Assembly: GCA_030040755.1 (NCBI GenBank)
Contig: JASHTC010000216.1
Coordinates: 1-25,843 of the forward strand
Direction: 5' to 3'
DNA: 25,843 nucleotides
DNA from: Thermoplasmata archaeon
GTDB taxonomy: Archaea; Thermoplasmatota; Thermoplasmata; Lutacidiplasmatales; UBA184
A program made the translations under genes and the position numbers. Shown here one piece after another: positions 5,821-25,843 of this stretch. The notes below the pieces were generated by a model. That model worked only from the letters and a program-made list of their open reading frames with translations, had not been told where the DNA came from and did not search any database. Positions within the stretch are counted from its first letter, which is position 1; the number at the start of each line of letters is the position of its first letter.

Positions 5821-7578
5821 CTACCGGGCGGGCGCGGGCGGCGGGGCGGCGAGCTTCATCTTCGCCAGGTCCTCCCGCGCCTCCTGGAGCGCCTTCTCCG
5901 GCTCCTTGTAGTAGAAGGCGACGAGCTGGCCGACGTCCCGGTGGGTGAACGGGTGCTGCCGGGTCGCCTGCGCCTCCCGGGCCTGGAGGTAGTCGAGCAT
6001 CTCGACGCGCCGCCGGACCTCGCGCTCCATCTCCTTCATCGACCAGTTCTTCGCGAGCGCGACCCGTTCGTAAACGTAGGAGTGGCCGGAGTAGAGGAAG
6101 GTGTCGTCGGCCGGGTTCCACGAGTAGACCGAGTTGGTGATCAGCTCGTTCGTCTCGGGGTCGAGCCCGACGATCTCGGTGAGCGACTGGACGCGCCGGG
6201 TCATCTTCGAGCCGACCTTGACCTGGCGCTGGAGCAGGACGAGGTTGAGCGCGCTGACGAGCGAGCGGGGGAGCGAGATCGGAGGGTTCTCCATCCGGTG
6301 GACCATCGCGCTGACGCTCTCCGCGTGGAAGGTCGTGTAGCAGGTCTTGCCAGTCGCCATCGCCTGGAAGACGATGAACGCCTCGGCCCCTCGGACCTCT
6401 CCGACCATCAGGTACTGGGGGCGCTGGCGGAGGGCCGCCGCGAGCAGGTCGAACATGTCGATCTCCCCCGGGGCCTTGCCGCTGACGAGGTTCTTGGCGC
6501 CGAAGCCGGCGCGGGTCAGCGAGGGGACCCAGTTCTCGTGCGGGAGGTTCAGCTCGCGGGTGTCCTCGATGGAGACGATCTTCATCTGGGGCGGGATGAA
6601 CAGGAGGGTGGCGTTGAGGGTCGTCGTCTTCCCGCTGGCCGTCCCCCCGCAGACCATCATCGACTGCCCGCTCTCGATGGCGATCCAGAGGTAGGCCATC
6701 ATCTCCGGGCTCATCGTCTTGAACTTCAGCAGGTCGACCGGCGTGAACGGGTTGTCCCGGAACCGACGGATGGTGAACGAGCTCCCGCGCTTGGTCACGT
6801 GGACCCCGAGCGTCGCCTGGAGACGGGAGCCGTCCGGGACCGTGGCGTCCAGGATCGGGCTCGCGACGCTGATGTGCTTGCCCGAGCGCTGGGCGAGCCA
6901 GATGACGTAGTCGTCGACCAGCTTCGCGCTCTCGAACTTCAGGTTGGAGCGGATCGAGCCGAACTTCCGGTGGTAGATGTAGAGCGGGATGCCGACCCCG
7001 TCGCACGAGATGTCCTCGACCTCGCTGTCGGTCATCGGGACGTCGACGATCCCGTAACCGATGAAGTCCCGCTCGAGGTAGTAGAGCATCCGGCCCTTGG
7101 TGGTCGGGCCGGGGGAGAGGTCCCACTCCTGGAGCTTCTTGTCGACCATGAGGCGGAGCTCGGTCCGCTTCGTCTGCGGGTCGAGCTCGGGGAGCGGCTC
7201 GAACTCGTCGATCAGGACCGTGTGCATCCGCTCGGTCAGCTCCTTCTCGAGCGGGGAGAGCGGCGGCTCGATGACCTCGTAGAGGTACTCGTTGCGCGCG
7301 TTGTGGTAGGAGACCCGCACGTAGGAGAAGCCGGGGCGGATCGGGGCCAGGTCGATCTCCTTCTGGGCCGGGTCGGGCAGCGGCGGGACGGGGGTGACCT
7401 CCCCCTCCGCGCCCTGGCCCGAGACGCCGAGCCGGGCGAGCCGCACGCCGTGGGGGTCGGAGGAGCCCTTCCGCAGGGCCGCCCCGACGCGCAGGAACGG
7501 GGAGAACGAGCGGGCCGGGCGGCGTCGGGGCCGCTCGAGCGTGACCGTCTCCGGCGGGGGGGCCGCCTCCCCGGCCAT
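5821..7578 (-). CDS. Type IV pilus / type II-IV secretion ATPase (FlaI/PilB/TadA-like), copy 2, 585 aa
   Basis: EDISCDG, Walker A GGTASGKTT, Asp box IEDTREL, Walker B LMVGEVRG, His box TTFHA. Confidence 0.93.
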   Translation of the reverse strand: MAGEAAPPPETVTLERPRRRPARSFSPFLRVGAALRKGSSDPHGVRLARLGVSGQGAEGEVTPVPPLPDPAQKEIDLAPIRPGFSYVRVSYHNARNEYLYEVIEPPLSPLEKELTERMHTVLIDEFEPLPELDPQTKRTELRLMVDKKLQEWDLSPGPTTKGRMLYYLERDFIGYGIVDVPMTDSEVEDISCDGVGIPLYIYHRKFGSIRSNLKFESAKLVDDYVIWLAQRSGKHISVASPILDATVPDGSRLQATLGVHVTKRGSSFTIRRFRDNPFTPVDLLKFKTMSPEMMAYLWIAIESGQSMMVCGGTASGKTTTLNATLLFIPPQMKIVSIEDTRELNLPHENWVPSLTRAGFGAKNLVSGKAPGEIDMFDLLAAALRQRPQYLMVGEVRGAEAFIVFQAMATGKTCYTTFHAESVSAMVHRMENPPISLPRSLVSALNLVLLQRQVKVGSKMTRRVQSLTEIVGLDPETNELITNSVYSWNPADDTFLYSGHSYVYERVALAKNWSMKEMEREVRRRVEMLDYLQAREAQATRQHPFTHRDVGQLVAFYYKEPEKALQEAREDLAKMKLAAPPPAPAR

Positions 7579-7579
7579 C

Positions 7580-8560
7580 TTAGCCCCCCGGAACGGACAG
7601 GATCGGGACGAAGAAGCGCATCGTGACGTACCCCATGATCAGCATGATCGTCGCGTGCTGGAGCCCGTAGGCGATCTTCCCCTTCTGCAGGATGCCGGCC
7701 ATGATGCCGTCCCCGACCGCGTGGGCGATGACCGCCACGAAGAAGGCGAGGAACAGCTGCGGCACCAGCGTGAAGGCGAGCGAGACGCCCCCGGCGGAGC
7801 CGAGGGAGGAGTGCGCGACGCCCGAGCCGGCGGTGATCATGTCGGGCAGGAAGATCGCCGCCATGATGTAGATCGTGACGAGGAAGACCCCGAACGAGAT
7901 GTAGATGACCGTGAGGTAGGTGAGCATCTGGATCTCCCGTCCCTTCACCTGGAGCTGCGCCTCCCGGGTGTCGTGGGCGACCATCGTCAGCACGTCCGCG
8001 ACGTTCCCGCCGGCCTCGTTGGCCCGGGTGACGATGGAGACGACCCGCTGGACGAGCGGGGTCGGGACCCGTTCCTCGAAGAGGCGCAGCGCGGTGGCGA
8101 CGGGGACCCCCCACTCGAGCTGGCTGGCCATCTTCTTGATCTCGTCCGTCAGGAGGCCGTAGCGGCCCTTGCTCGCCACGACGATGGCATCCGGCAGCGT
8201 CATGCCGAAGCGCCCGGCCTCGGCGACGTCCCGCAGGAAGTCGGGCAGCCGGTCCTCGATCTTCTCGATCCGGCTGAGCTGCTGGCTCTTCAGGAACCCG
8301 TAGGGGGCCATGATGGCGATCAGGCCGAAGACGATCCAGTCGAGCGCCGCGTCGAAGCCGGTCGTGACGCCCGCGCGGAAGACGAACGTGATGTCGCCGG
8401 CCCAGGTGAGGCCAGCGATGATCCACAGGACCACCGCGACCGCGGCGCCGACGACCAGCACGACCTCGGCGCTCCCCAGCCCCTCCTCGGTCTCGGCGGC
8501 CGTCGGCGCGGCGAGCGCCTTGACCTTCCGAACCGATGCGGGCGCGTTCGCTGTCGCCAT
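7580..8560 (-). CDS. TadC/FlaJ-like (T2SS F domain) membrane platform protein, 326 aa
   Basis: IEDRLPDFLRDVAEAGRFGMTL...YGLLTDEIKKMASQLEWG, EAGGNVADVL, multiple hydrophobic segments, operon context. Confidence 0.9.
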   Translation of the reverse strand: MATANAPASVRKVKALAAPTAAETEEGLGSAEVVLVVGAAVAVVLWIIAGLTWAGDITFVFRAGVTTGFDAALDWIVFGLIAIMAPYGFLKSQQLSRIEKIEDRLPDFLRDVAEAGRFGMTLPDAIVVASKGRYGLLTDEIKKMASQLEWGVPVATALRLFEERVPTPLVQRVVSIVTRANEAGGNVADVLTMVAHDTREAQLQVKGREIQMLTYLTVIYISFGVFLVTIYIMAAIFLPDMITAGSGVAHSSLGSAGGVSLAFTLVPQLFLAFFVAVIAHAVGDGIMAGILQKGKIAYGLQHATIMLIMGYVTMRFFVPILSVPGG

Positions 8561-9554: not shown

Positions 9555-11210
9555 CTAGACCCCCTTCGGGAACGGAGTCCCCGCCTGGACGCGCGTCATG
9601 ACCTCGGTCGGGTCCTTGTAGTACTGCGCCACGATCCGCCACAGCTGGCGGTAGTCGGTGATCTTGAACTTCACGAGATAGCGGATCACGTCGACCCGGC
9701 GCTGGAACTCGGCGTCCATCTCGTCGGTCGTGAAGTTCCGGATCTCGGTGATCTTGTCGAACAGGAACGAGTGGCCCTTGAAGGTGAACCCATCGGTCGC
9801 CGGGTCCCACTCGTAGACCGTGTTGGTGATCAGCTCGTTGGTCTCGGGCTCGAACCCGACGATCTCGAGCACCTGCTTCAGCCGCCGGACCACCCCCTTC
9901 TCGGTCCGGGCCTGGATCTGGATGATGACGTTGTTCAGCGCCGAGAGCAGGATCCGCGGGGTGTTGATCGGCGGGTTCTCGAGGCGGTTGACCATCGACT
10001 TCACGCTGTCGGCGTGCATGGTCGAGTAGGTCGTGTGGCCGGTGGCCATCGCCTGGAACATCGTGTACGTCTCCTTGCCGCGGACCTCCCCCACGATGAT
10101 GTAGTTCGGCCGCTGCCGCAGCGCGGCCCGCACGAGGTCGAACATGTCGACCTCGCCCGCGGTCTTCCCGTCCGGCCCGCGGTCCCCGGTCCCGGACCGG
10201 GTGGCGCCGGGGATCCAGTTCTCGTGCGGGAGGTTGACCTCCCGCGTGTCCTCGATCGAGACGATCTTGGAGGTCGGGGGGATGAAGAGCGCGATGGCGT
10301 TCAGCGTGCTGGTCTTGCCCGCGGCGGGGCCCCCGCAGATGATCACCGACTCGCCCTGCTCGGCCGCGAGCCAGAAGTAGGCGACCATCTCCTCGTTCGC
10401 GCTGCCCATCAGGACGAGGTCGACCGGGGTGAACGGCCGCTCCTTGAACCGCCGGATCGTGAAGCTCGCGCCGCGCGTCGTGATCTCGCGCGCGTACGTC
10501 GCCTGGACCCGGTGCCCCTCGGGCGTGGTGCCGTCCAGGATCGGGGAGGAGACGCTGACCGACTTGCTGCAGCGCTGGCCCAGCATGACGATGAACGAGT
10601 TGAGGGAGTCCTCGTCGGCGAAGACGACGTTCGTCTTCATCGACTCGTACTTCCCGTGGAAGATGAAGATCGGTACGTCCACCCCGTCGCACGAGATGTC
10701 CTCGACCTCCGGGTCGAGGATCAGGGAGTCGACCGGGCCGTAGCCCACGAAGTCGCGCAGGAGGTAGTAGATGATCCGCTCGGTCGAGAGGGGGGAGAGC
10801 GGGACGTCCCGGCTGCGGAAGTACTCCTCCGCCTCCCCGCGGAGGTAGGAGCGCTTGTCCGCGGTCGAGAGGTTGGCCGTCTCGCTGCCGAGGATCTGGG
10901 TCATGGTCGTCTTCAGGTGGGCGACCAGCCCCTTCTCGTGCGCGGAGAGCTGGGGCTCGATGATCTCGTAGAGGTACTCCTTGTTCCGGTCGTTGTAGGA
11001 GACCCGCGAGTAGGAGTAGGGCGGGTTGACCGCCTGCACCTCGAGCTCGCGCATCGTGGGCTCGGCGAGCGGCGGAAGGGCCGTGATGAACGTCCCGGGG
11101 ACGTCCGTCGTCGGGAGGGCGGACTGCGCGCTGGTGTCGAGCGGGTTCGGCTCCACCGCCGGGGTGCGGGGGATCTTGACGCGGAACGACGAGCCGCCGG
11201 ACGCGGTCAC
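9555..11210 (-). CDS. Type IV pilus / type II-IV secretion ATPase (FlaI/PilB/TadA-like), copy 1, 551 aa
   Basis: EDISCDG, Walker A GGPAAGKTS, IEDTREV, Walker B IIVGEVRG, His box STMHA. Confidence 0.93.
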   Translation of the reverse strand: MTASGGSSFRVKIPRTPAVEPNPLDTSAQSALPTTDVPGTFITALPPLAEPTMRELEVQAVNPPYSYSRVSYNDRNKEYLYEIIEPQLSAHEKGLVAHLKTTMTQILGSETANLSTADKRSYLRGEAEEYFRSRDVPLSPLSTERIIYYLLRDFVGYGPVDSLILDPEVEDISCDGVDVPIFIFHGKYESMKTNVVFADEDSLNSFIVMLGQRCSKSVSVSSPILDGTTPEGHRVQATYAREITTRGASFTIRRFKERPFTPVDLVLMGSANEEMVAYFWLAAEQGESVIICGGPAAGKTSTLNAIALFIPPTSKIVSIEDTREVNLPHENWIPGATRSGTGDRGPDGKTAGEVDMFDLVRAALRQRPNYIIVGEVRGKETYTMFQAMATGHTTYSTMHADSVKSMVNRLENPPINTPRILLSALNNVIIQIQARTEKGVVRRLKQVLEIVGFEPETNELITNTVYEWDPATDGFTFKGHSFLFDKITEIRNFTTDEMDAEFQRRVDVIRYLVKFKITDYRQLWRIVAQYYKDPTEVMTRVQAGTPFPKGV

Positions 11211-11214
11211 GGGC

Positions 11215-12288
11215 TCACGTCCCCCCCACGCCGGTGCTGACCTGCACGCCGGCGTAATCGTACTGGACGTAGTTCACGTTCGCCACGGTGAGGGTGATCA
11301 CGGTCGTCTCGCCGCTCCCGGACGAGCACGCCGCCGTGGTGGGGGGGGTGGTGGACGTGAGGTTGGTGCCGGGGCTCAGTTGCGTATAGCTCCAGTCGGT
11401 GCTCGCCAGCCCGCTCACCGCCATCGTCTGCAGGAGGTACGACGTCCAGGCGCACGGGTACTGGGTCCCAATCTTGAAGGTGAAGGTGAACGGCATCGGG
11501 GTGTTGTTGGTCGACCCGGGGGCGACCGCGCCCCGGGACGTGACCGGCTGGCTGTACCGCAGGTGGCTGTAGAGGTCCTGGCTGCCCAGCCCGACGATCG
11601 AGGACTCGTTCCCGTACATCTGGAGCATGCTCGTGGAGATCGTCGTGTTGCCGGCGGCGGTGTGGGTGATGTTGAACGGCGGGTTGACGTCCATGTCCTC
11701 GTAGCCCCCGGGCTGCCACTGGATGACGGCGTCGTCCTCGTAGAAGAACGTCACCGGCGTGTAGTACCGGTTCGGCAGGACCATCTCGAGGACGCCGGTG
11801 GGGATCCGCTGGCTGTAGCCTCCCGAGCCGCCCGGCCCGTTCTGGAGGCTGATGTTCGCGAACAGGCAGGCGGCGGGGTTGACCGGCTGGCCGATCCCCT
11901 TGGCGAAGCCGGGGTCGGTCACGTTGAACCCTTTGGCACACCCCGAGGGGAGGAACTCGAGGATCCCCTCGGTCGGCTGGGCGAGGAGGGGGACGCTGCC
12001 CGAGCTGAGCGTGAACGGCACCCCGACGGTCTGGGGTCCCCCGAGCTCGTACTGGGAGTCCACCGCGGACTTGAAGCTGGAGAAGGCGAGGTCGGCCTGG
12101 GAGGTGAACGCGGCCTCGTTCTCGGTCATCCACAAGGGGAGGTACTGCGTCACGAACACCCCGAACAGCGTGAAGAAGACCAGGAGGGCGAGGAGGGTGC
12201 CGATGACGGCGACGACCCCCCGCCGATTGCGGAGCCGGCGACGGGCCCGGCGAGACCAGCGGCTCGTGCGATGACTCGGCTCCCCCAT
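11215..12288 (-). CDS. Large pilin-like surface protein with class III signal peptide, 357 aa
   Basis: Basic leader ending RNRRG|VVAVIGTLLALLVFFTLFG (prepilin-peptidase-type site after G24); Thr/Ser/Gly/Asn-rich body with seven N-X-S/T sequons and four Cys; first gene of the pilus operon. Confidence 0.8.
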   Translation of the reverse strand: MGEPSHRTSRWSRRARRRLRNRRGVVAVIGTLLALLVFFTLFGVFVTQYLPLWMTENEAAFTSQADLAFSSFKSAVDSQYELGGPQTVGVPFTLSSGSVPLLAQPTEGILEFLPSGCAKGFNVTDPGFAKGIGQPVNPAACLFANISLQNGPGGSGGYSQRIPTGVLEMVLPNRYYTPVTFFYEDDAVIQWQPGGYEDMDVNPPFNITHTAAGNTTISTSMLQMYGNESSIVGLGSQDLYSHLRYSQPVTSRGAVAPGSTNNTPMPFTFTFKIGTQYPCAWTSYLLQTMAVSGLASTDWSYTQLSPGTNLTSTTPPTTAACSSGSGETTVITLTVANVNYVQYDYAGVQVSTGVGGT

Positions 12289-20356: not shown

Positions 20357-22795
20357 TCAGCTCGACGTGAACGAGCCGGCGCGGCCGCGGATGCGCTCGG
20401 CGACCTCGAGGCGTTCCAGTCCTTTCGCCAGGCCCCGGGTTCCCTCGGGGAAGGGGTGGGTGCGGTAGAACGCCCGCACCTCCTCGGACCGGCCCAGCCC
20501 GAGGTAGATCGTCGTGCGTTCCAGGAGGGTCGACAGCGACGTGGACCCGCTGAACCGTTCGGCCAGCTGGTCGAGATGCCGCGTGAGCCACGGCCAGACC
20601 CGGTCCCGCCCCGCGGGGTTGAGGACGGCCTGGGTGACGACGTGGACGGCATGCCCGGTCACGATCCCCCCGGAGAGGGTCAGGTCGAGGGTGGCTTCGA
20701 GCAGGTCCGGCTCCGGGGTCCAGGCGAGCGCCCGGTTGAGGAGGAACGTCTCGGCCTCGGTGGTCGCCCGCTCCTGGGCGCGCTTGAGCTCGTTCCACCC
20801 CGCCCGGCCCTCCGACCGCGCCCGGGCGACCGCCACCGCGGCCCGGAGGTCGGGGTCGAGGCGCGACCACTCCGGGAACATCTCGGAGAGGTCGCGGGCG
20901 AACGCCTCGTCGGCGCGGACGCGGTACCCCGCGACCCGCTCGCGCAGGATGCCGGTCGCCGGCCGCTCGTCCGGACGATGGTGGAGGCCCACCGACTCCG
21001 TCCGCTCCGCCAGGTAGCGGCGGGTCGCGTCGTGGACCGCCCCTGTCGTGGGCAGGATCCGCCCGAGGGTCGCCAGGGTGCCCGCCAGCGAGGTGATGAC
21101 CAGGAGGTCGTCGCACCCGCCCACCTGGCGGATGAACCGGGCGAACGTCGGCCAGTCGGAGTCGCCCGCGAAGAGGAACGAGCCGAGGTCGTCCGCGACT
21201 TTCCAGCGGTCCGTGTATCCGAGGGAGGGGAGCGCCCGGAAGAGCCGTTCGAGGAGCTCGGGGTCGTACTGGACGCGGTAGAATCCGACCGCGCCGGGGT
21301 TGAGGTGGACGAGCCCCTCCGCGGGCACCGTCAATTCGGTCGTCCGGTCCGAGAAGACGAGCCGGCGCCGCTCCGTCCCGAGGTCCAGGATGAGCGGGAT
21401 CGGCCAGGGAGGCTCCTCGCCCCGCACCGGGAGCAGCGAAAAGCGTCGCTGCGCGAGGCGTAGAGTGGTGCCCTCCCGTCGGGCGCGGATGACCGGGTGA
21501 CCGGGCCGGTCGATCCAGGGGGTCGCCATCGCGGCGATCGGTTCGTTCCCCGCGCGCCCGAGCGACTCCCAGAGGTCCTCGGTGCGGGCATTCCCGTACC
21601 GGAACCGCTCGAGGTAGTCGATGACCCCGGCCCGGAAGCGGTCCGCGCCCAGGTAGGATTCGAGCATCGCGAGGACGGAGCACCCCTTGCCGTAGCTGAT
21701 CTCGTCGAAGATCTGGCTGATCTCCTCCGGCCGCTCCACGTGGGCCCGCACGGGATGGGTGCAGGCGAGCGAGTCCGCGTCGATCGCCGCGGCGGTGCCG
21801 GCGACCCGCAGGTAGTAGTCCGTGATGGCGTCCATCCCCGGCTCGAGACGCTGGGTGAGTCGGGTCTCCATCAGGGAGGCGAAGCTCTCGTTGAGCCAGA
21901 CATCGTCCCACGTGGCCATCGTGACGAGGTTGCCGAACCACTGGTGCGCGATCTCGTGGCCCATCGTCTCGAAGACGTCCTGGCGGGTGGAGGAGTCCGC
22001 GGACGCGTCGACCAAGAGACGCATGTCCCGGAAGCAGATCGCGCCCCAGTTCTCCATCGCCCCGAACGCCTGGTCGGCGACCGCCACGAGGTCGAGCTTC
22101 GGGAGCGGGTAGGGGATGCGGAAGTACTCCTCGTAGGCCTCCAGGATGCGTCGCCCGGCGTGGACGGCGAACTCCCCCGCGGCGGCCCGACCCGGGGGGC
22201 CGAGCACCCGGACCGCGACGCGTCCTCCGAGGTCCTCGGCCCGGTCGAAGCGTCCGATCCCGAGGTAGAACAGGTAGGTGGACATGGGGGGCGTCGGCCG
22301 GAACGCCCACACCCGGTCCCCGTCCACGTCGCGCACGACCTCGGGGGAGGTGTTCGAGATGACCTCCAGGTCGGCGCGGGTGCGGACGGTGAGCCGGAGC
22401 CGCGCCCTGCGGTACGGTTCGTCCTGGCACGGGAAGATGCGTCGGGCGCCCACCGGCTCGCACTGGCTGGTGAGCACGAAGCCGTCCGCGTGCCGGCATC
22501 GGTACAGCCCGATCAGGTTCCCTTCCTTCACGGCCCCCGAGAAGTCGACCGACACCGGGGCGTGACCCTCCGGTTCGCCCAGCACGAGGCGGCCCGCGGA
22601 ACGACGGTACTCGAACGGGAGCGGGGTCGTCCCCTGTCGGACGCCCTCGACCTCGAGTCCCTCGGCGTTGAGCTCGAGCGCCTGCGGCGGCGCCGGGGCG
22701 TCGAACTCGACGCGGCCGCGCCAGCGTCCGCCGTCGAAGTCGACCTCCAGGCTCAGCCGGTACTCCGCAATCTGGGGGCGTGGAGAAAAGCTCAA
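20357..22795 (-). CDS. M1-family zinc aminopeptidase (tricorn-interacting factor F2/F3-like), about 812 aa
   Basis: GAMENWG, HEIAH-X18-E (WLNESFA), SYGKG, ERAP1-like C-terminal helical region; TTG start uncertain. Confidence 0.93.
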   Translation of the reverse strand: MSFSPRPQIAEYRLSLEVDFDGGRWRGRVEFDAPAPPQALELNAEGLEVEGVRQGTTPLPFEYRRSAGRLVLGEPEGHAPVSVDFSGAVKEGNLIGLYRCRHADGFVLTSQCEPVGARRIFPCQDEPYRRARLRLTVRTRADLEVISNTSPEVVRDVDGDRVWAFRPTPPMSTYLFYLGIGRFDRAEDLGGRVAVRVLGPPGRAAAGEFAVHAGRRILEAYEEYFRIPYPLPKLDLVAVADQAFGAMENWGAICFRDMRLLVDASADSSTRQDVFETMGHEIAHQWFGNLVTMATWDDVWLNESFASLMETRLTQRLEPGMDAITDYYLRVAGTAAAIDADSLACTHPVRAHVERPEEISQIFDEISYGKGCSVLAMLESYLGADRFRAGVIDYLERFRYGNARTEDLWESLGRAGNEPIAAMATPWIDRPGHPVIRARREGTTLRLAQRRFSLLPVRGEEPPWPIPLILDLGTERRRLVFSDRTTELTVPAEGLVHLNPGAVGFYRVQYDPELLERLFRALPSLGYTDRWKVADDLGSFLFAGDSDWPTFARFIRQVGGCDDLLVITSLAGTLATLGRILPTTGAVHDATRRYLAERTESVGLHHRPDERPATGILRERVAGYRVRADEAFARDLSEMFPEWSRLDPDLRAAVAVARARSEGRAGWNELKRAQERATTEAETFLLNRALAWTPEPDLLEATLDLTLSGGIVTGHAVHVVTQAVLNPAGRDRVWPWLTRHLDQLAERFSGSTSLSTLLERTTIYLGLGRSEEVRAFYRTHPFPEGTRGLAKGLERLEVAERIRGRAGSFTSS

Positions 22796-22890
22796 CCGAT
22801 CGCCTGCACTCGGTCGGGCCAGTCGGGTCCCTATCTTGAAGGTATACCGGCGCTCCCGCTCCGCGGGCCCCGCGAAGCCGGAAGTCCAAC

Positions 22891-22898
22891 GTTAAATA
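22891..22898 (+). promoter_or_regulatory. 5S rRNA promoter TATA box
   Basis: GTTAAATA about 22 nt upstream of the 5S helix I. Confidence 0.7.
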
Positions 22899-23043: not shown

Positions 23044-23104
23044 CCCGGGACCGGGCAATCCCCCGAGCCGATAGGTTAATCGCGGCGCGCGGGTGGCGCG
23101 GTCT

Positions 23105-24082
23105 GTGCGGCTCGGGGCGCACATCGGCACCGCCGACGGCCTGGTCGAGGCGGTCCGTCAGGGTCGCGCGATCGGGTGCGCGTCGATCCAGATCTTCTCG
23201 AAGAGCCCCCAGATGTGGGCGGGGCCCCCGATCCAGCCCGACGCGGCGACGGCGTTTCGGGAGGCGGTGCGGGTCGAGCCCCGTCTCGCCACCGCCGTGC
23301 ATCACGGCTACCTGATCAATCTCGGCTCCCCGAAGGCGTTCATGCTCCGCCGCTCGCGCACCGCCTTCCGCGACGAGATCGGGCGGGCCGAGCTCCTCGG
23401 CGTCGAGGGCCTGATCTTCCACCCGGGTGCCCACCTCGGGTCGGGTGCCGCGACCGGGCTGCGCGTCATCGCGGAGAGCCTCCGCGGCGCCCTCGAGGCG
23501 TATCCCGAGGGGCAGGTTCGGCTCCTGCTCGAGAACGCGGCGGGCCAGGGGACCGCCCTCTGCTCGACCCTCGAGGAGCTCCAGACGGTCCTGGGCGAGG
23601 TCGACCGTCCCGACCGGCTCGGCGTCACGCTCGACACCTGTCACCTGTTCGCCGCGGGGGTCGACCTCCGCACGGAGGGGGGGTACGGTACCCTCTGCGA
23701 CCGGATCGACGGCACGATCGGGCGCTCCTCCGTGCGTGCCTTCCACCTGAACGACGCGAAGGCGGAGCTCGGCTCCCACCTCGACCGCCACGAGAACATC
23801 GGCAAGGGCCAGATCGGGCTGGCCGGGTTCTATTCCCTCGTCCGGGACCCCCGTTGGACGACGACCCCCGGCTTTCTCGAGACACCGCTCGACGACCGGG
23901 GGTACGCCCGGTACGCCGAGGACCTGGTGGCGCTGCGTTCGCTCCTCACCGGCGAGCGGCCGGCGCCTTCGCTCCCGCCCGCGGCCCCGGCGCCCACGAC
24001 GCCCTCCTCCCGCCCGTCGCGCAAGCGACGCGCCGCCCCCCGAGGCGCTCCCCCGTCGCCCGCGGTCCGAACGCTCAAATAG
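23105..24082 (+). CDS. nfo: Endonuclease IV (AP endonuclease 2)
   Basis: LGAH, HHGYLINL, FHPG, LENAAGQG, LDTCH, FHLND, DRHENIG, LETP (zinc ligand set). Start placed at GTG 23105, about 25 nt after TTAAT (23076-23080); the ORF track uses 23093. Confidence 0.93.
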   Translation: MRLGAHIGTADGLVEAVRQGRAIGCASIQIFSKSPQMWAGPPIQPDAATAFREAVRVEPRLATAVHHGYLINLGSPKAFMLRRSRTAFRDEIGRAELLGVEGLIFHPGAHLGSGAATGLRVIAESLRGALEAYPEGQVRLLLENAAGQGTALCSTLEELQTVLGEVDRPDRLGVTLDTCHLFAAGVDLRTEGGYGTLCDRIDGTIGRSSVRAFHLNDAKAELGSHLDRHENIGKGQIGLAGFYSLVRDPRWTTTPGFLETPLDDRGYARYAEDLVALRSLLTGERPAPSLPPAAPAPTTPSSRPSRKRRAAPRGAPPSPAVRTLK

Positions 24083-24107: not shown

Positions 24108-24959
24108 ATGGCGGACGAGGTGTCGGCCGAGACGTTCCGGTCGCTCGAGGCGAGGGCGCTCGAGATGCGGCGCGACATCCTGCGGATGACCCACGCCGCG
24201 GGGAGCGGCCATCCGGGCGGGAGCCTCTCGGTCTGCGACCTGGTGAACGCCCTCGTCTCCCAGGAGCTCCGGATCGACCCGGCGCGCCCCGACTGGCCGG
24301 AGCGGGACCGGCTGGTGCTGTCGAAGGCTCACGCGGCGCCGGCGCTCTATTCGGCCCTCGCCCTCCGGGGATTCTTTCCCCGGGACGAGCTCCTGACGCT
24401 GCGCCAGCTCGGGAGCCGGCTCCAGGGCTTCGCCGACCGGAACAAGCTTCCGTACGTCGAGGCGACCAGCGGTTGCCCCGGCCAAGGGATCGGCATGGCG
24501 GTCGGGATGGCGCTCGCCGCGCGCCTCGGACCCCACCCTTTCCGGACCTACGCGATCCTCGGGGACGGCGAGTGCCAGGCGGGCCCGACGTGGGAGGCCC
24601 TGATGGCCGGCGGGCACTACCGGCTCGCCCACCTGGTAGTGATCCTAGACCGGAACCTCTACGAGACCGACGGTCCGACCGAGTCGATCCTGGGGGTCGA
24701 GCCGATCGCCGACAAGTTCCGGGCGTTCCGCTACCACGCGCTCGAGATCGACGGACACGACTACCGCCAGATCCTCGCCGCGTTCGCCGAGGCCCGTCGG
24801 ACCGCCGACCGCCCCACCGCCATCATCGCGCGCACGGTCAAGGGCAAGGGGGTCTCGTTCATGGAAGGGAGCCCCGCCTACCACGCCCAGCCGCCGACCA
24901 CCGCCGAGCTCGAGCGCGCGCTCGCGGAGCTCGGCGCTCCGCCGGGAGTCGCCCGATGA
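24108..24959 (+). CDS. Transketolase-like N-terminal (ThDP-binding) subunit with active-site substitutions, 283 aa
   Basis: SGHPGGSLS, RDRLVLSKAH, GDG-X-N motif (GDGECQAG...DRN), TVKGKGVSFME. Several normally invariant residues differ (see findings). Confidence 0.9.
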   Translation: MADEVSAETFRSLEARALEMRRDILRMTHAAGSGHPGGSLSVCDLVNALVSQELRIDPARPDWPERDRLVLSKAHAAPALYSALALRGFFPRDELLTLRQLGSRLQGFADRNKLPYVEATSGCPGQGIGMAVGMALAARLGPHPFRTYAILGDGECQAGPTWEALMAGGHYRLAHLVVILDRNLYETDGPTESILGVEPIADKFRAFRYHALEIDGHDYRQILAAFAEARRTADRPTAIIARTVKGKGVSFMEGSPAYHAQPPTTAELERALAELGAPPGVAR

Positions 24960-25843
24960 GGCCGGGGGGCAGCGCAGAGAGCCTGCGGGACGCCTACGGG
25001 AGGACGCTCCTCGAGCTTGGGGAGAAGGACCCGACCCTCGTCGTCCTGGACGCCGACCGCTCCGGCTCGACCCGGACGATGCCGTTCGGCCAGAAGTACC
25101 CGGACCGGTTCTTCAACGTCGGGGAGATGGCCCCCACGATGATGTCCATCGCCGCCGGGCTCGCGCTCTCCGGACGGGTCGCCTACGCGAGCACCTTCGC
25201 GGTCTGGGCGGCCGGCCAGGCCTACCACCACGTGCGGCAATCGATCTGCTACAACCGCGCCAACGTCAAGATCGTCGCGACCCACGGCGGTCTCCTTACC
25301 GGCGGGGACGGGGGCCCCCACCAGATGGTGGAGGACATCGGGCTGATGCGGGGCCTCCCGGGGATGACCGTCATCGTGCCGGCGGACGCCCCGACGACCC
25401 GGGCCGCCACCCTCGCGGTCCACGGGCACCCCGGGCCCGCCTACGTGCGACTGAGCCGCGAGAGCCTGCCGGTCGTGACCGACGGGTCGTTCCAGCTCGG
25501 GAAGGCCGCCGAGCTCCGAGCCGGCAGCGACCTCACGGTCGTGGCGGTCGGCGCCCTGGTCGCCCGCGCGCTCGCGGTCGCCGAGGAGCTGGCCCGGGTC
25601 GGGGTCTCGACCCGGGTGCTCGACTTCGCGTCCGTCAAGCCGTTCGACGAACCGGCCCTCCTGCGGGCCGCCCGCGACACCGGCGCGATCCTGGTGCTCG
25701 AGGAGCATTCGGTCCTCACCGGGGTCGGCGCGCTCGTCGCGTCCACCACGTCGGAAAACTATCCGGTGCCCGTGCGTCGCGTCGGCGTCCCGGACGTCTT
25801 CGGCGAGTCCGGTGAGCCGTGGGCCCTGCTCGACCGCTACGGG
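24956..25843 (+). CDS. Transketolase-like C-terminal (pyrimidine-binding + C-terminal domain) subunit, truncated at window edge; absent from ORF track
   Basis: Translated by hand from ATG 24956 (ATGA overlap): MRPGGSAESLRDAYG...DADRSGST...RFFNVGEMAPTMM...THGGLLTGGDGGPHQ...YVRLSR...VKPFD...EEHS...GVPDVFGESG; 296 open codons to the edge. Confidence 0.92.
   Translation, partial: MRPGGSAESLRDAYGRTLLELGEKDPTLVVLDADRSGSTRTMPFGQKYPDRFFNVGEMAPTMMSIAAGLALSGRVAYASTFAVWAAGQAYHHVRQSICYNRANVKIVATHGGLLTGGDGGPHQMVEDIGLMRGLPGMTVIVPADAPTTRAATLAVHGHPGPAYVRLSRESLPVVTDGSFQLGKAAELRAGSDLTVVAVGALVARALAVAEELARVGVSTRVLDFASVKPFDEPALLRAARDTGAILVLEEHSVLTGVGALVASTTSENYPVPVRRVGVPDVFGESGEPWALLDRYG

Follow-up and report, generated by a model that had tools for sequence, protein, structure and literature searches.

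A split transketolase in a Thermoplasmata archaeon, probably disabled at its cofactor ring pocket and retained as a protein

The genes tkA and tkB at the end of contig JASHTC010000216.1 of a Thermoplasmata archaeon (Lutacidiplasmatales, UBA184; GCA_030040755.1) encode the two subunits of a split transketolase. The stretch analysed here, hereafter called the window, comprises 25,843 nucleotides and corresponds to the entire contig C138 of a 1.53-Mb metagenome-assembled genome (MAG; 71% complete, 231 contigs), which we designate G000. Our comparative analysis suggests that the pair is probably a redundant, catalytically disabled enzyme that has just begun to turn into a non-catalytic protein. 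As judged from the sequences, the pocket for the two rings of thiamine diphosphate (ThDP) has been let go or pushed, while the fold is retained together with the diphosphate site, the phosphate clamp and the C-terminal domain.

The ring pocket of the split transketolase

The two genes and the three sites that are central for the argument are located as follows:

24108..24959, forward strand (+): tkA, PP-domain subunit of the split transketolase, 283 aa (Pfam; ungapped alignment to 6YAK)
24956..25843, forward strand (+): tkB, subunit with Pyr and C-terminal domain (Pfam; ungapped alignment to 6YAJ)
24429..24431, forward strand (+): Phe108 of tkA, which replaces the donor-binding His (H100 of the Escherichia coli transketolase, EcTK)
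24468..24488, forward strand (+): SGCPGQG loop of tkA, reading TGCLGQG in 109/120 homologues; Pro124 replaces the Leu (ChTK Leu119N, see below) that contacts both rings
25124..25132, forward strand (+): codons of Glu57-Met58-Ala59 of tkB, where the family reads Val-Met-Glu; the Glu is lost and a new Glu stands two residues earlier

Both frames are open without any stop or frameshift and overlap in an ATGA at positions 24956-24959, and tkB is truncated by the contig end at residue 296 (relatives have 317 aa). Pfam recognizes PF00456 (Transketolase_N, 167 bits) in tkA and PF02779 (Transket_pyr, 105 bits) together with PF02780 (Transketolase_C, 100 bits) in tkB. The PP domain on one chain, the Pyr and C-terminal domains on the other and the adjacent, coupled genes represent the architecture of a split transketolase. 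The scores for the NCBIfam model NF004559 (tkA 306 bits, tkB 236 bits) lie below the cut-off of 488, which a single subunit cannot reach in this full-length model. The nearest database proteins of both subunits stem from Thermoplasmata archaea, and the DNA of the window recurs in peat metagenomes.

The split transketolase of Carboxydothermus hydrogenoformans (ChTK; 6YAK/6YAJ) served as structural reference, and phmmer aligned tkA and tkB to it gap-free through all motifs (E 1e-80 and 1e-90). The reading frames, coordinates, codons and residue equivalences of a first-pass annotation that had been made from the letters of the window were borne out, and the ungapped course of the alignment speaks against a register shift that would place Glu57 of tkB at N1' of ThDP. 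The EcTK numbers used here follow the customary numbering and PMC7661550. In ChTK, the aminopyrimidine ring is contacted by Glu55C, Gly117N and Leu119N with Phe80C stacking onto it, the thiazolium ring by Leu31C, Ile53C, Leu119N and Ile182N, and the diphosphate and metal by Lys68, His70, Asp148, Gly149, Glu150, Asn178, Leu180 and Lys240 of the N chain (PMC7661550).

The equivalent ring set of the window consists of Arg35, Glu57, Ala59 and Trp84 in tkB as well as Gly122 (kept), Pro124 and Thr187 in tkA, and hence does not constitute a canonical ring pocket. The site of the activating Glu (ChTK Glu55C, EcTK E411) is occupied by Ala59 (25130-25132), and the codon changes relative to the sister genome G001 are GTG>GAG at position 57 and GAG>GCC at position 59. 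Trp84 is found in place of the stacking Phe, Thr187 at the Ile182N (I189) position and Ala158 of tkA (24579-24581) at the E160 equivalent. Most of the new side chains in the pocket are larger than the original ones or carry a charge (Leu>Arg, Val>Glu, Phe>Trp, His>Phe). In contrast, the diphosphate and metal ligands are all retained: K73, H75, D153, G154, E155, N183 and K245 match Lys68, His70, Asp148, Gly149, Glu150, Asn178 and Lys240 of ChTK. The substrate site was compared with the His set H26, H66, H100, H261 and H473 of EcTK. Within this set and the phosphate clamp, H35, H75, H259 (the YHA His), H122, R11, S36, H110 and D118 are kept, and Phe108 at the H100 position is the exception. Phe or Tyr at this position is the usual state of 1-deoxy-D-xylulose 5-phosphate (DXP) synthases, and a His>Phe exchange engineered into transketolase raises the use of pyruvate (PMC7661550, PMC13663882).

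The uneven distribution of these changes was quantified over 336 columns that are invariant in eight congeners with split genes only, 19 of which are changed in G000. Five of the seven ring-contact residues are affected (hypergeometric P = 6.6e-6), but none of the seven diphosphate/metal and none of the nine substrate and clamp residues (ring versus these 16: Fisher p = 0.0006). If the latter were as free to change as the ring sites, 0/16 would be expected with P = 8e-4. This contrast of 0/16 with 5/7 indicates a selective release instead of a uniform decay. The claim of the first-pass annotation that the residues for binding and activation of the ring were lost and the diphosphate and metal ligands kept is thus confirmed. 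Its further conclusion, selection and not decay, stands in part: the loss is not uniform, but positive selection on the ring pocket was not demonstrated, since 5/7 changes do not exceed the expectation of full neutrality over the branch (P = 0.06), and significance is reached solely by the contrast to the 16 unchanged residues.

Species-private and genus-wide changes

The 120 nearest homologues of each subunit, which are 70-91% identical, allowed us to separate the changes of the window from those of its genus. GDGECQAG with Ala at the E160 equivalent is present in 110/120 homologues, and DRNGxETDG with Thr at the I189 equivalent throughout. Both Ala158 and Thr187 also occur in congeners whose sole detected transketolase is the split pair, and the E160 position is Ser, Val or Glu in other Thermoplasmata families. 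These two signatures are the rule of the genus, and Ala158 and Thr187 are accordingly uninformative on the window. Three of the five substitutions listed by the first-pass annotation (Ala59, Pro124, Trp84) are private to the species, whereas the remaining two are genus-wide.

The motifs TGCLGQG or TGGLGQG, SKGH and the GH of the donor His are near-invariant among the tkA homologues, GxDGxTHQ is essentially invariant among those of tkB, and the window alone reads SGCPGQG, SKAH, GF and GGDGGPHQ. The catalytic site of tkB is occupied by Glu in 117/120 homologues, rarely by Asp, and by Ala in a single one (P0060); 119/120 carry a carboxylate. The private changes at invariant sites of tkA are F51S, G74A, H108F, T121S, L124P, I197V, T211A, V240I, G260A and K261Q. 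Those of tkB are L35R, L43P, V57E, E59A, F84W, N91H, V115T, T121P and T167S; all of them fall into the Pyr domain and none into the C-terminal domain. Several of them (G74A, H108F, T121S, G260A and K261Q in tkA; L35R, V57E, N91H, V115T and T121P in tkB) had previously been overlooked. At columns with at least 97% invariance, tkA shows nine and tkB five departures, which makes tkA the most deviant of 120 aligned sequences (window and 119 homologues) with a median of 0.

The initial idea of a distinct, conserved family of Glu-less enzymes was rejected, because the loss is private to one species, and G001 and nearly all close homologues keep the Glu. The syntenic sister G001 (tkB 91%, tkA 85% identical) retains the catalytic Glu and every ring-pocket residue. 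The same holds true for the Glu on a larger scale: BLAST column read-out of a 50%-identity library recovered it in 137/150 cluster representatives, five did not align across the site, and the eight aligned representatives without Glu include the four clusters nearest to this genus.

Two homologues match the GEMAP of the window in part. P0060 (L046/L047) reads GAMAP with Ala at positions 57 and 59; its tkA is largely intact, and a transaldolase follows directly downstream. P0029 (L048/L049), whose nearest relative is P0004, reads GEMGS, i.e. Glu57 with Gly59, and its partial tkA lacks the metal-binding Asn (DRSG). Both represent further independent metagenomic lineages without the catalytic Glu.

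Authenticity of the sequence and evolutionary rates

An artefact of assembly, binning or sequencing is practically negligible as an explanation, even though the MAG is incomplete and fragmented. The variant motifs (SGCPGQG/GF and GEMAP regions) recur with 0-2 differences in Logan contigs that were assembled from four separate peat samples, and the codons at 25124..25132 are reproduced by contigs from three of the samples. Two samples vary elsewhere, namely at 25097 (T>C, tkB Y48H) and 25198 (C>T, a third-position change), which is indicative of distinct populations carrying the same active-site alleles. Assembly errors, which the first-pass annotation had named as grounds for abandoning its claim, were therefore ruled out, and the neighbouring genes on the same contig evolve at normal rates.

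The latter observation results from Tajima relative-rate tests of G000 against G001, which is syntenic across the window, with G003, G008 or G017 as outgroup. The ratio of private changes between G000 and G001 is 25:6 for tkA and 17:4 for tkB but 123:129 for 13 neighbouring genes (contrast p = 2.6e-5). Within tkB, it amounts to 15:2 in the Pyr domain and 2:2 in the C-terminal domain. Substitution was thus about four-fold faster on the G000 branch, and this acceleration is confined to the two cofactor domains. The ratio of nonsynonymous to synonymous substitution rates (dN/dS; three-taxon Nei-Gojobori) on this branch is ~0.29 for tkA and ~0.17 for tkB in comparison to ~0.06 on the sister branch; in the comparison of G000 with G001, the Pyr domain of tkB has a dN/dS of 0.19 and the C-terminal domain one of 0.04. 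The private codon changes comprise 16 AT>GC versus 4 GC>AT in a genome with 71% GC, an excess that should be expected from the release of constrained sites in a GC-rich genome. The GC content at third codon positions (GC3) is 0.93-0.95 in both frames, which is normal for G000.

The pair is accompanied by a putative promoter element of its own:

24075..24082, forward strand (+): TATA-box-like element TCAAATAG, 26-33 nt upstream of the tkA ATG

This octamer overlaps the stop codon of the upstream gene for a TIM-barrel protein and is found at the same distance in 15/15 aligned congeners, with TCAAATAG-type sequences, CTAAATAG in some and TAAATACG in one of them. Its position would fit a leaderless archaeal transcript. 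The initial description of an intact pair with open frames, ATGA coupling and a TATA-like box is consequently correct. Purifying selection demonstrably still acts on the frames, the promoter box, the coupling, the diphosphate and metal ligands, the clamp for the sugar phosphate and the entire C-terminal domain.

A full-length transketolase and degeneration across the genus

The check for a second, canonical transketolase that had been proposed along with the first-pass annotation was positive:

G000 C98:7156-11921 (loci L002, L022, L043): full-length transketolase and transaldolase open reading frame

Contig C98 of G000 encodes a canonical transketolase of 671 aa (TTGPLGQG, SDGDLMEG, GVREHAM) with the Glu of the REH motif in place and, behind it, an open frame of 991 aa that contains a transaldolase domain (PF00923). 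Both genes lie in a ~7.5-kb island that is absent at the collinear site of G001. In its flanks, C98 runs collinear with G001 at a DNA identity of 81-87%, thus indicating that this contig belongs to the G000 organism; given that only the island is extra, mis-binning of C98 was ruled out. The island was either inserted in G000 or deleted in G001. The DNA just downstream of it matches sequence beside the full-length genes of G012 and G011 and a contig of G020.

In order to view the pair in the context of its genus, 24 congeners were searched with tkB and the full-length enzyme, and the active-site columns were read from the fetched loci (25 genomes including G000). All ten genomes without the full-length enzyme exhibit the intact split-pair signature, and Pfam detected a single Transketolase_N in the four of them that were checked (4/4). 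The picture is different in the 15 genomes with the full-length enzyme, G000 included. Five harbor degenerate pairs with altered catalytic residues (G000, G006, G011, G012, G020), seven a lone tkB (G007, G013, G014, G015, G021, G022, G024), and no split gene was found at E<=1e-30 in two (G002, G005); one pair (G008) is intact. The association between presence of the full-length enzyme and degeneration (Fisher p = 1e-5) is overstated, because the congeners are not independent. Long branches are scattered over the tkB tree, and G000 pairs with the intact G001 (99/97 support), which documents that degeneration arose several times. One example is G012, which independently shares L35R, L124P, N91H, T121P and G260A with the window and has His>Tyr at the donor site. 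Starting from CTC, an AT>GC change can yield Leu>Arg or Leu>Pro only, which explains why G012 shares these two exchanges.

The following related loci were recorded in the congeners:

L017:1504-2439, L018, L019 and L033-L036: solitary tkB-like genes of G007, G015, G024, G014, G022, G021 and G013
L020:1184-2049: split tkB of G010, a close relative, with one frameshift in the GGDGG coding run

The lone tkB genes encode proteins of 317 aa in which every active-site residue is replaced. Their frames are free of stops and show the coding pattern of GC at the three codon positions, and a tkA was not found anywhere in the five of these genomes that were checked (5/5). The lone tkB is located directly after the TIM-barrel gene in four loci, as identified by Pfam for G007 and G022 and by an adjacent open reading frame of matching size for G021 and G013. 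Identity to the intact form is 64-85% in the C-terminal domain and 42-54% in the Pyr domain; the dN/dS of 0.28-0.38 for the whole gene splits into 0.33-0.39 for the Pyr domain and 0.12-0.34 for the C-terminal domain. The solitary tkB genes are accordingly maintained and not pseudogenes, with the transketolase C-terminal domain as their constrained part, and they look like an unrecognized family of non-catalytic transketolase C-subunit proteins.

The frameshift of G010 was set aside and not counted as a pseudogene, as it is a single event in a G-rich GGDGG run of a two-contig assembly and may be a sequencing indel.

Interpretation of the split pair

The scenario that we consider probable starts from the split pair as the ancestral transketolase of the genus. 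It would have become redundant with the full-length transketolase and the transaldolase of the C98 island, and as a result of this redundancy it would have lost catalysis. The rewriting of the ring pocket (Glu to Ala, Leu to Pro, the thiazolium contacts to Arg35 and Glu57, Phe to Trp, the donor His to Phe) is predicted to preclude productive binding or activation of ThDP. The larger or charged side chains may fill the emptied cavity, possibly via a salt bridge between Arg35 and Glu57, which is plausible because the residues at positions 35 and 57 both touch the thiazolium in ChTK. The congeners suggest a recurrent path from active-site degeneration via the loss of tkA to a solitary tkB-like protein of 317 aa that would be catalytically dead but conserved. 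With catalytic residues lost, the frame intact, purifying selection still acting and an active counterpart encoded elsewhere in the genome, the pair has the hallmarks of a pseudoenzyme, in which the loss of activity is inferred. This was one of four possibilities that had been raised for the window and it is the best supported, leaving a modified cofactor, a Glu-independent activation and a new reaction as minority readings.

Several observations weigh against this scenario. The intact pair of G008 coexists with a full-length enzyme, the congeners do not represent independent samples, and several of them are incomplete MAGs. The branch dN/dS is well below 1 without any stop or frameshift, hence the pair is not simply decaying. 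The concentration of changes in the ring pocket (5/7 versus 0/16) is not predicted by uniform relaxation and could mean a new ligand or a new chemistry. Finally, the independent lineage P0029 also pairs V57E with the loss of Glu59, which hints at a functional relocation of the Glu. The recurrent Glu57 could be due to chance, as it is one of five single-step options from GTG, or reflect a real relocation of the acid.

Neofunctionalization, in which the diphosphate/Mg site and the clamp were kept while the head-group pocket was reshaped under selection, is rather unlikely in our view. The pair would then bind another diphosphate-bearing molecule or a cofactor analogue, sense a sugar phosphate, or use a non-hydroxylated donor in the manner of DXP synthases (His>Phe). 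The distribution of changes over ring and other residues (P for 0/16 ~8e-4) would be in agreement with such a role, and so would the open frames, the conserved promoter box and the branch dN/dS of 0.17-0.29. The chemistry of the G000 pair may have shifted, by analogy to the DXP synthase state at the donor-His position, which is Phe here and Tyr in G012, and the latter independently carries five further exchanges of the window (see above). But the signature is found in no conserved family, and the set of residues differs in each degenerate lineage. The shared Leu>Pro and Leu>Arg exchanges are the only AT>GC options from CTC, and the hit rate of the ring sites is not above full neutrality. Moreover, the end state in seven congeners, with tkA lost and all active-site residues of tkB replaced, is unlike that expected for a new ligand of the PP site. 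A working ThDP enzyme with a relocated acid, whose Glu57 reaches N1' or acts near C2/N4', is distinctly improbable. V57E and the loss of Glu59 occur together here and in the unrelated P0029, V57E requires a T>A change that is not favored by GC pressure, and glyoxylate carboligase illustrates that the Glu is not indispensable for ThDP chemistry. On the other hand, no gap interrupts the alignment to the solved structure, and the register is hence unshifted. The residue of ChTK equivalent to position 57, Ile53C, contacts the thiazolium ring and not N1' (PMC7661550). In addition, Leu124Pro, Phe84Trp, Leu35Arg and His108Phe strike the same site, the Glu-less lineage P0060 has Ala at both positions, and the acceleration covers both cofactor domains.

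A young pseudogene without function, i.e. neutral DNA that has not yet acquired a stop or frameshift, would account for the loss of catalytic residues, the GC bias of the private codon changes and the lack of a detectable split gene in two congeners with the full-length enzyme. This explanation is very improbable in view of the C-terminal domain with its dN/dS of 0.04 and relative rate of 2:2, the normal coding pattern, the intact promoter box and ATGA coupling, and the 16 unchanged diphosphate/metal and substrate residues; far more diverged relatives also retain open frames of 317 aa. The scenario of a redundant and disabled enzyme leaves room for a bolder version, which is possible though clearly on the doubtful side. 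The pair might mark the first step of a selected and repeatable conversion to a non-catalytic binding or regulatory protein, making use of the diphosphate/metal site, the clamp and above all the C-terminal domain, or else Glu57 might support a ThDP-type chemistry without protonation of N1'. A literature search on transketolase pseudoenzymes and on Glu418 found nothing relevant.

Neighbouring genes

The gene order around the pair is shared by G001, G003, G008, G010 and the metagenomic contig L046, documenting orthology and synteny up to the end of the window inside tkB. The upstream neighbour is the TIM-barrel gene:

23093..24082, forward strand (+): xylose-isomerase-like TIM barrel (AP_endonuc_2), conserved across the genus

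Downstream of tkB, beyond the limits of the window, a small transaldolase is present in G001 and in L046, thus suggesting that the intact pair is a pentose-phosphate enzyme there. The cluster of TIM-barrel gene, tkA and tkB has a conserved divergent neighbour throughout the genus, namely an M1-family aminopeptidase (Peptidase_M1 and ERAP1_C; window 20360-22891, reverse strand). Two further genes of the reverse strand at positions 5824-7638 and 9558-11273 encode proteins of ~570-600 aa with 47-49% mutual identity, each of which is 95-96% conserved in G001. They are presumed thermosome-like paralogues and served solely as rate controls.

Implications

ThDP enzymes rarely lose the activating Glu, as documented by the large majority of tkB-type cluster representatives that keep it. 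In the present case, the loss recurs in environmental samples and appears to have a clear evolutionary cause. A natural time series is provided by the genus, with intact pairs, a pair rewritten in the ring pocket only (that of the window), heavily degenerate pairs and the lone tkB. It makes testable in which order a cofactor site is given up part by part after an enzyme has become redundant, and which non-catalytic job keeps the transketolase C-terminal domain conserved. If a selected conversion or a relocated Glu57 proved true, the graded series could reveal what the C-terminal domain of transketolase does. There is also a practical aspect: under their annotation as 'transketolase', the tk genes would lead to a dead enzyme being counted when pathways are reconstructed from such MAGs.

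Comparison with known systems

The window pair shares the two-gene architecture, the three domains, the diphosphate and metal ligands and three of the four substrate His with ChTK, as well as the residues aligned with its phosphate-binding Arg, Ser and His. It differs in Glu55C, Ile53C, Leu31C, Phe80C, Leu119N and the H100-equivalent His, which are replaced by Ala, Glu, Arg, Trp, Pro and Phe, respectively, and ChTK is an active enzyme. DXP synthases resemble the pair by the Phe/Tyr at the H100 position of EcTK and are weakly matched in Pfam and NCBIfam, but these enzymes are single chains that keep the activating Glu. The TIGR00204 scores of 62 and 136 bits are far from the cut-off of 466, and the window pair has the Phe alone in common with them.

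The pairs of G001 and the intact congeners are orthologues of the window pair in the same gene order (M1 peptidase, TIM-barrel gene, tkA, tkB) and share the promoter box, GDGECQAG and DRNxxETDG with it. They differ by the retention of all ring-pocket and catalytic residues, by the split pair as the sole transketolase found and by the small transaldolase downstream. The solitary tkB proteins have the same gene ancestry as the tkB of the window, a full-length transketolase in the genome, no catalytic Glu and a conserved C-terminal domain. They are much further along, however, since tkA has been lost, none of the active-site residues is left and the Pyr domain retains just 42-54% identity to the intact form.

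Two known cases from outside the genus resemble single aspects of the pair. Glyoxylate carboligase, an active ThDP enzyme of the pyruvate-oxidase/acetolactate-synthase family, has Val instead of the activating Glu and hence likewise a non-acidic residue where N1' is normally protonated. This substitution is family-wide and the enzyme works, whereas the change in the window is private to one species and other pocket residues are lost as well. The mammalian TKTL1 is a transketolase-like paralogue with a 38-residue deletion that damages the cofactor site, and its activity is disputed or absent. It also exists beside a working transketolase and lacks cofactor-binding and catalytic residues, but it is eukaryotic, consists of a single chain, was altered by a deletion rather than by point substitutions and has an unrelated origin. 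The pair of the window would thus belong to a known kind, a pseudoenzyme derived from a redundant enzyme; what appears to be new is the archaeal split transketolase of one species that was caught early and whose protein is retained.

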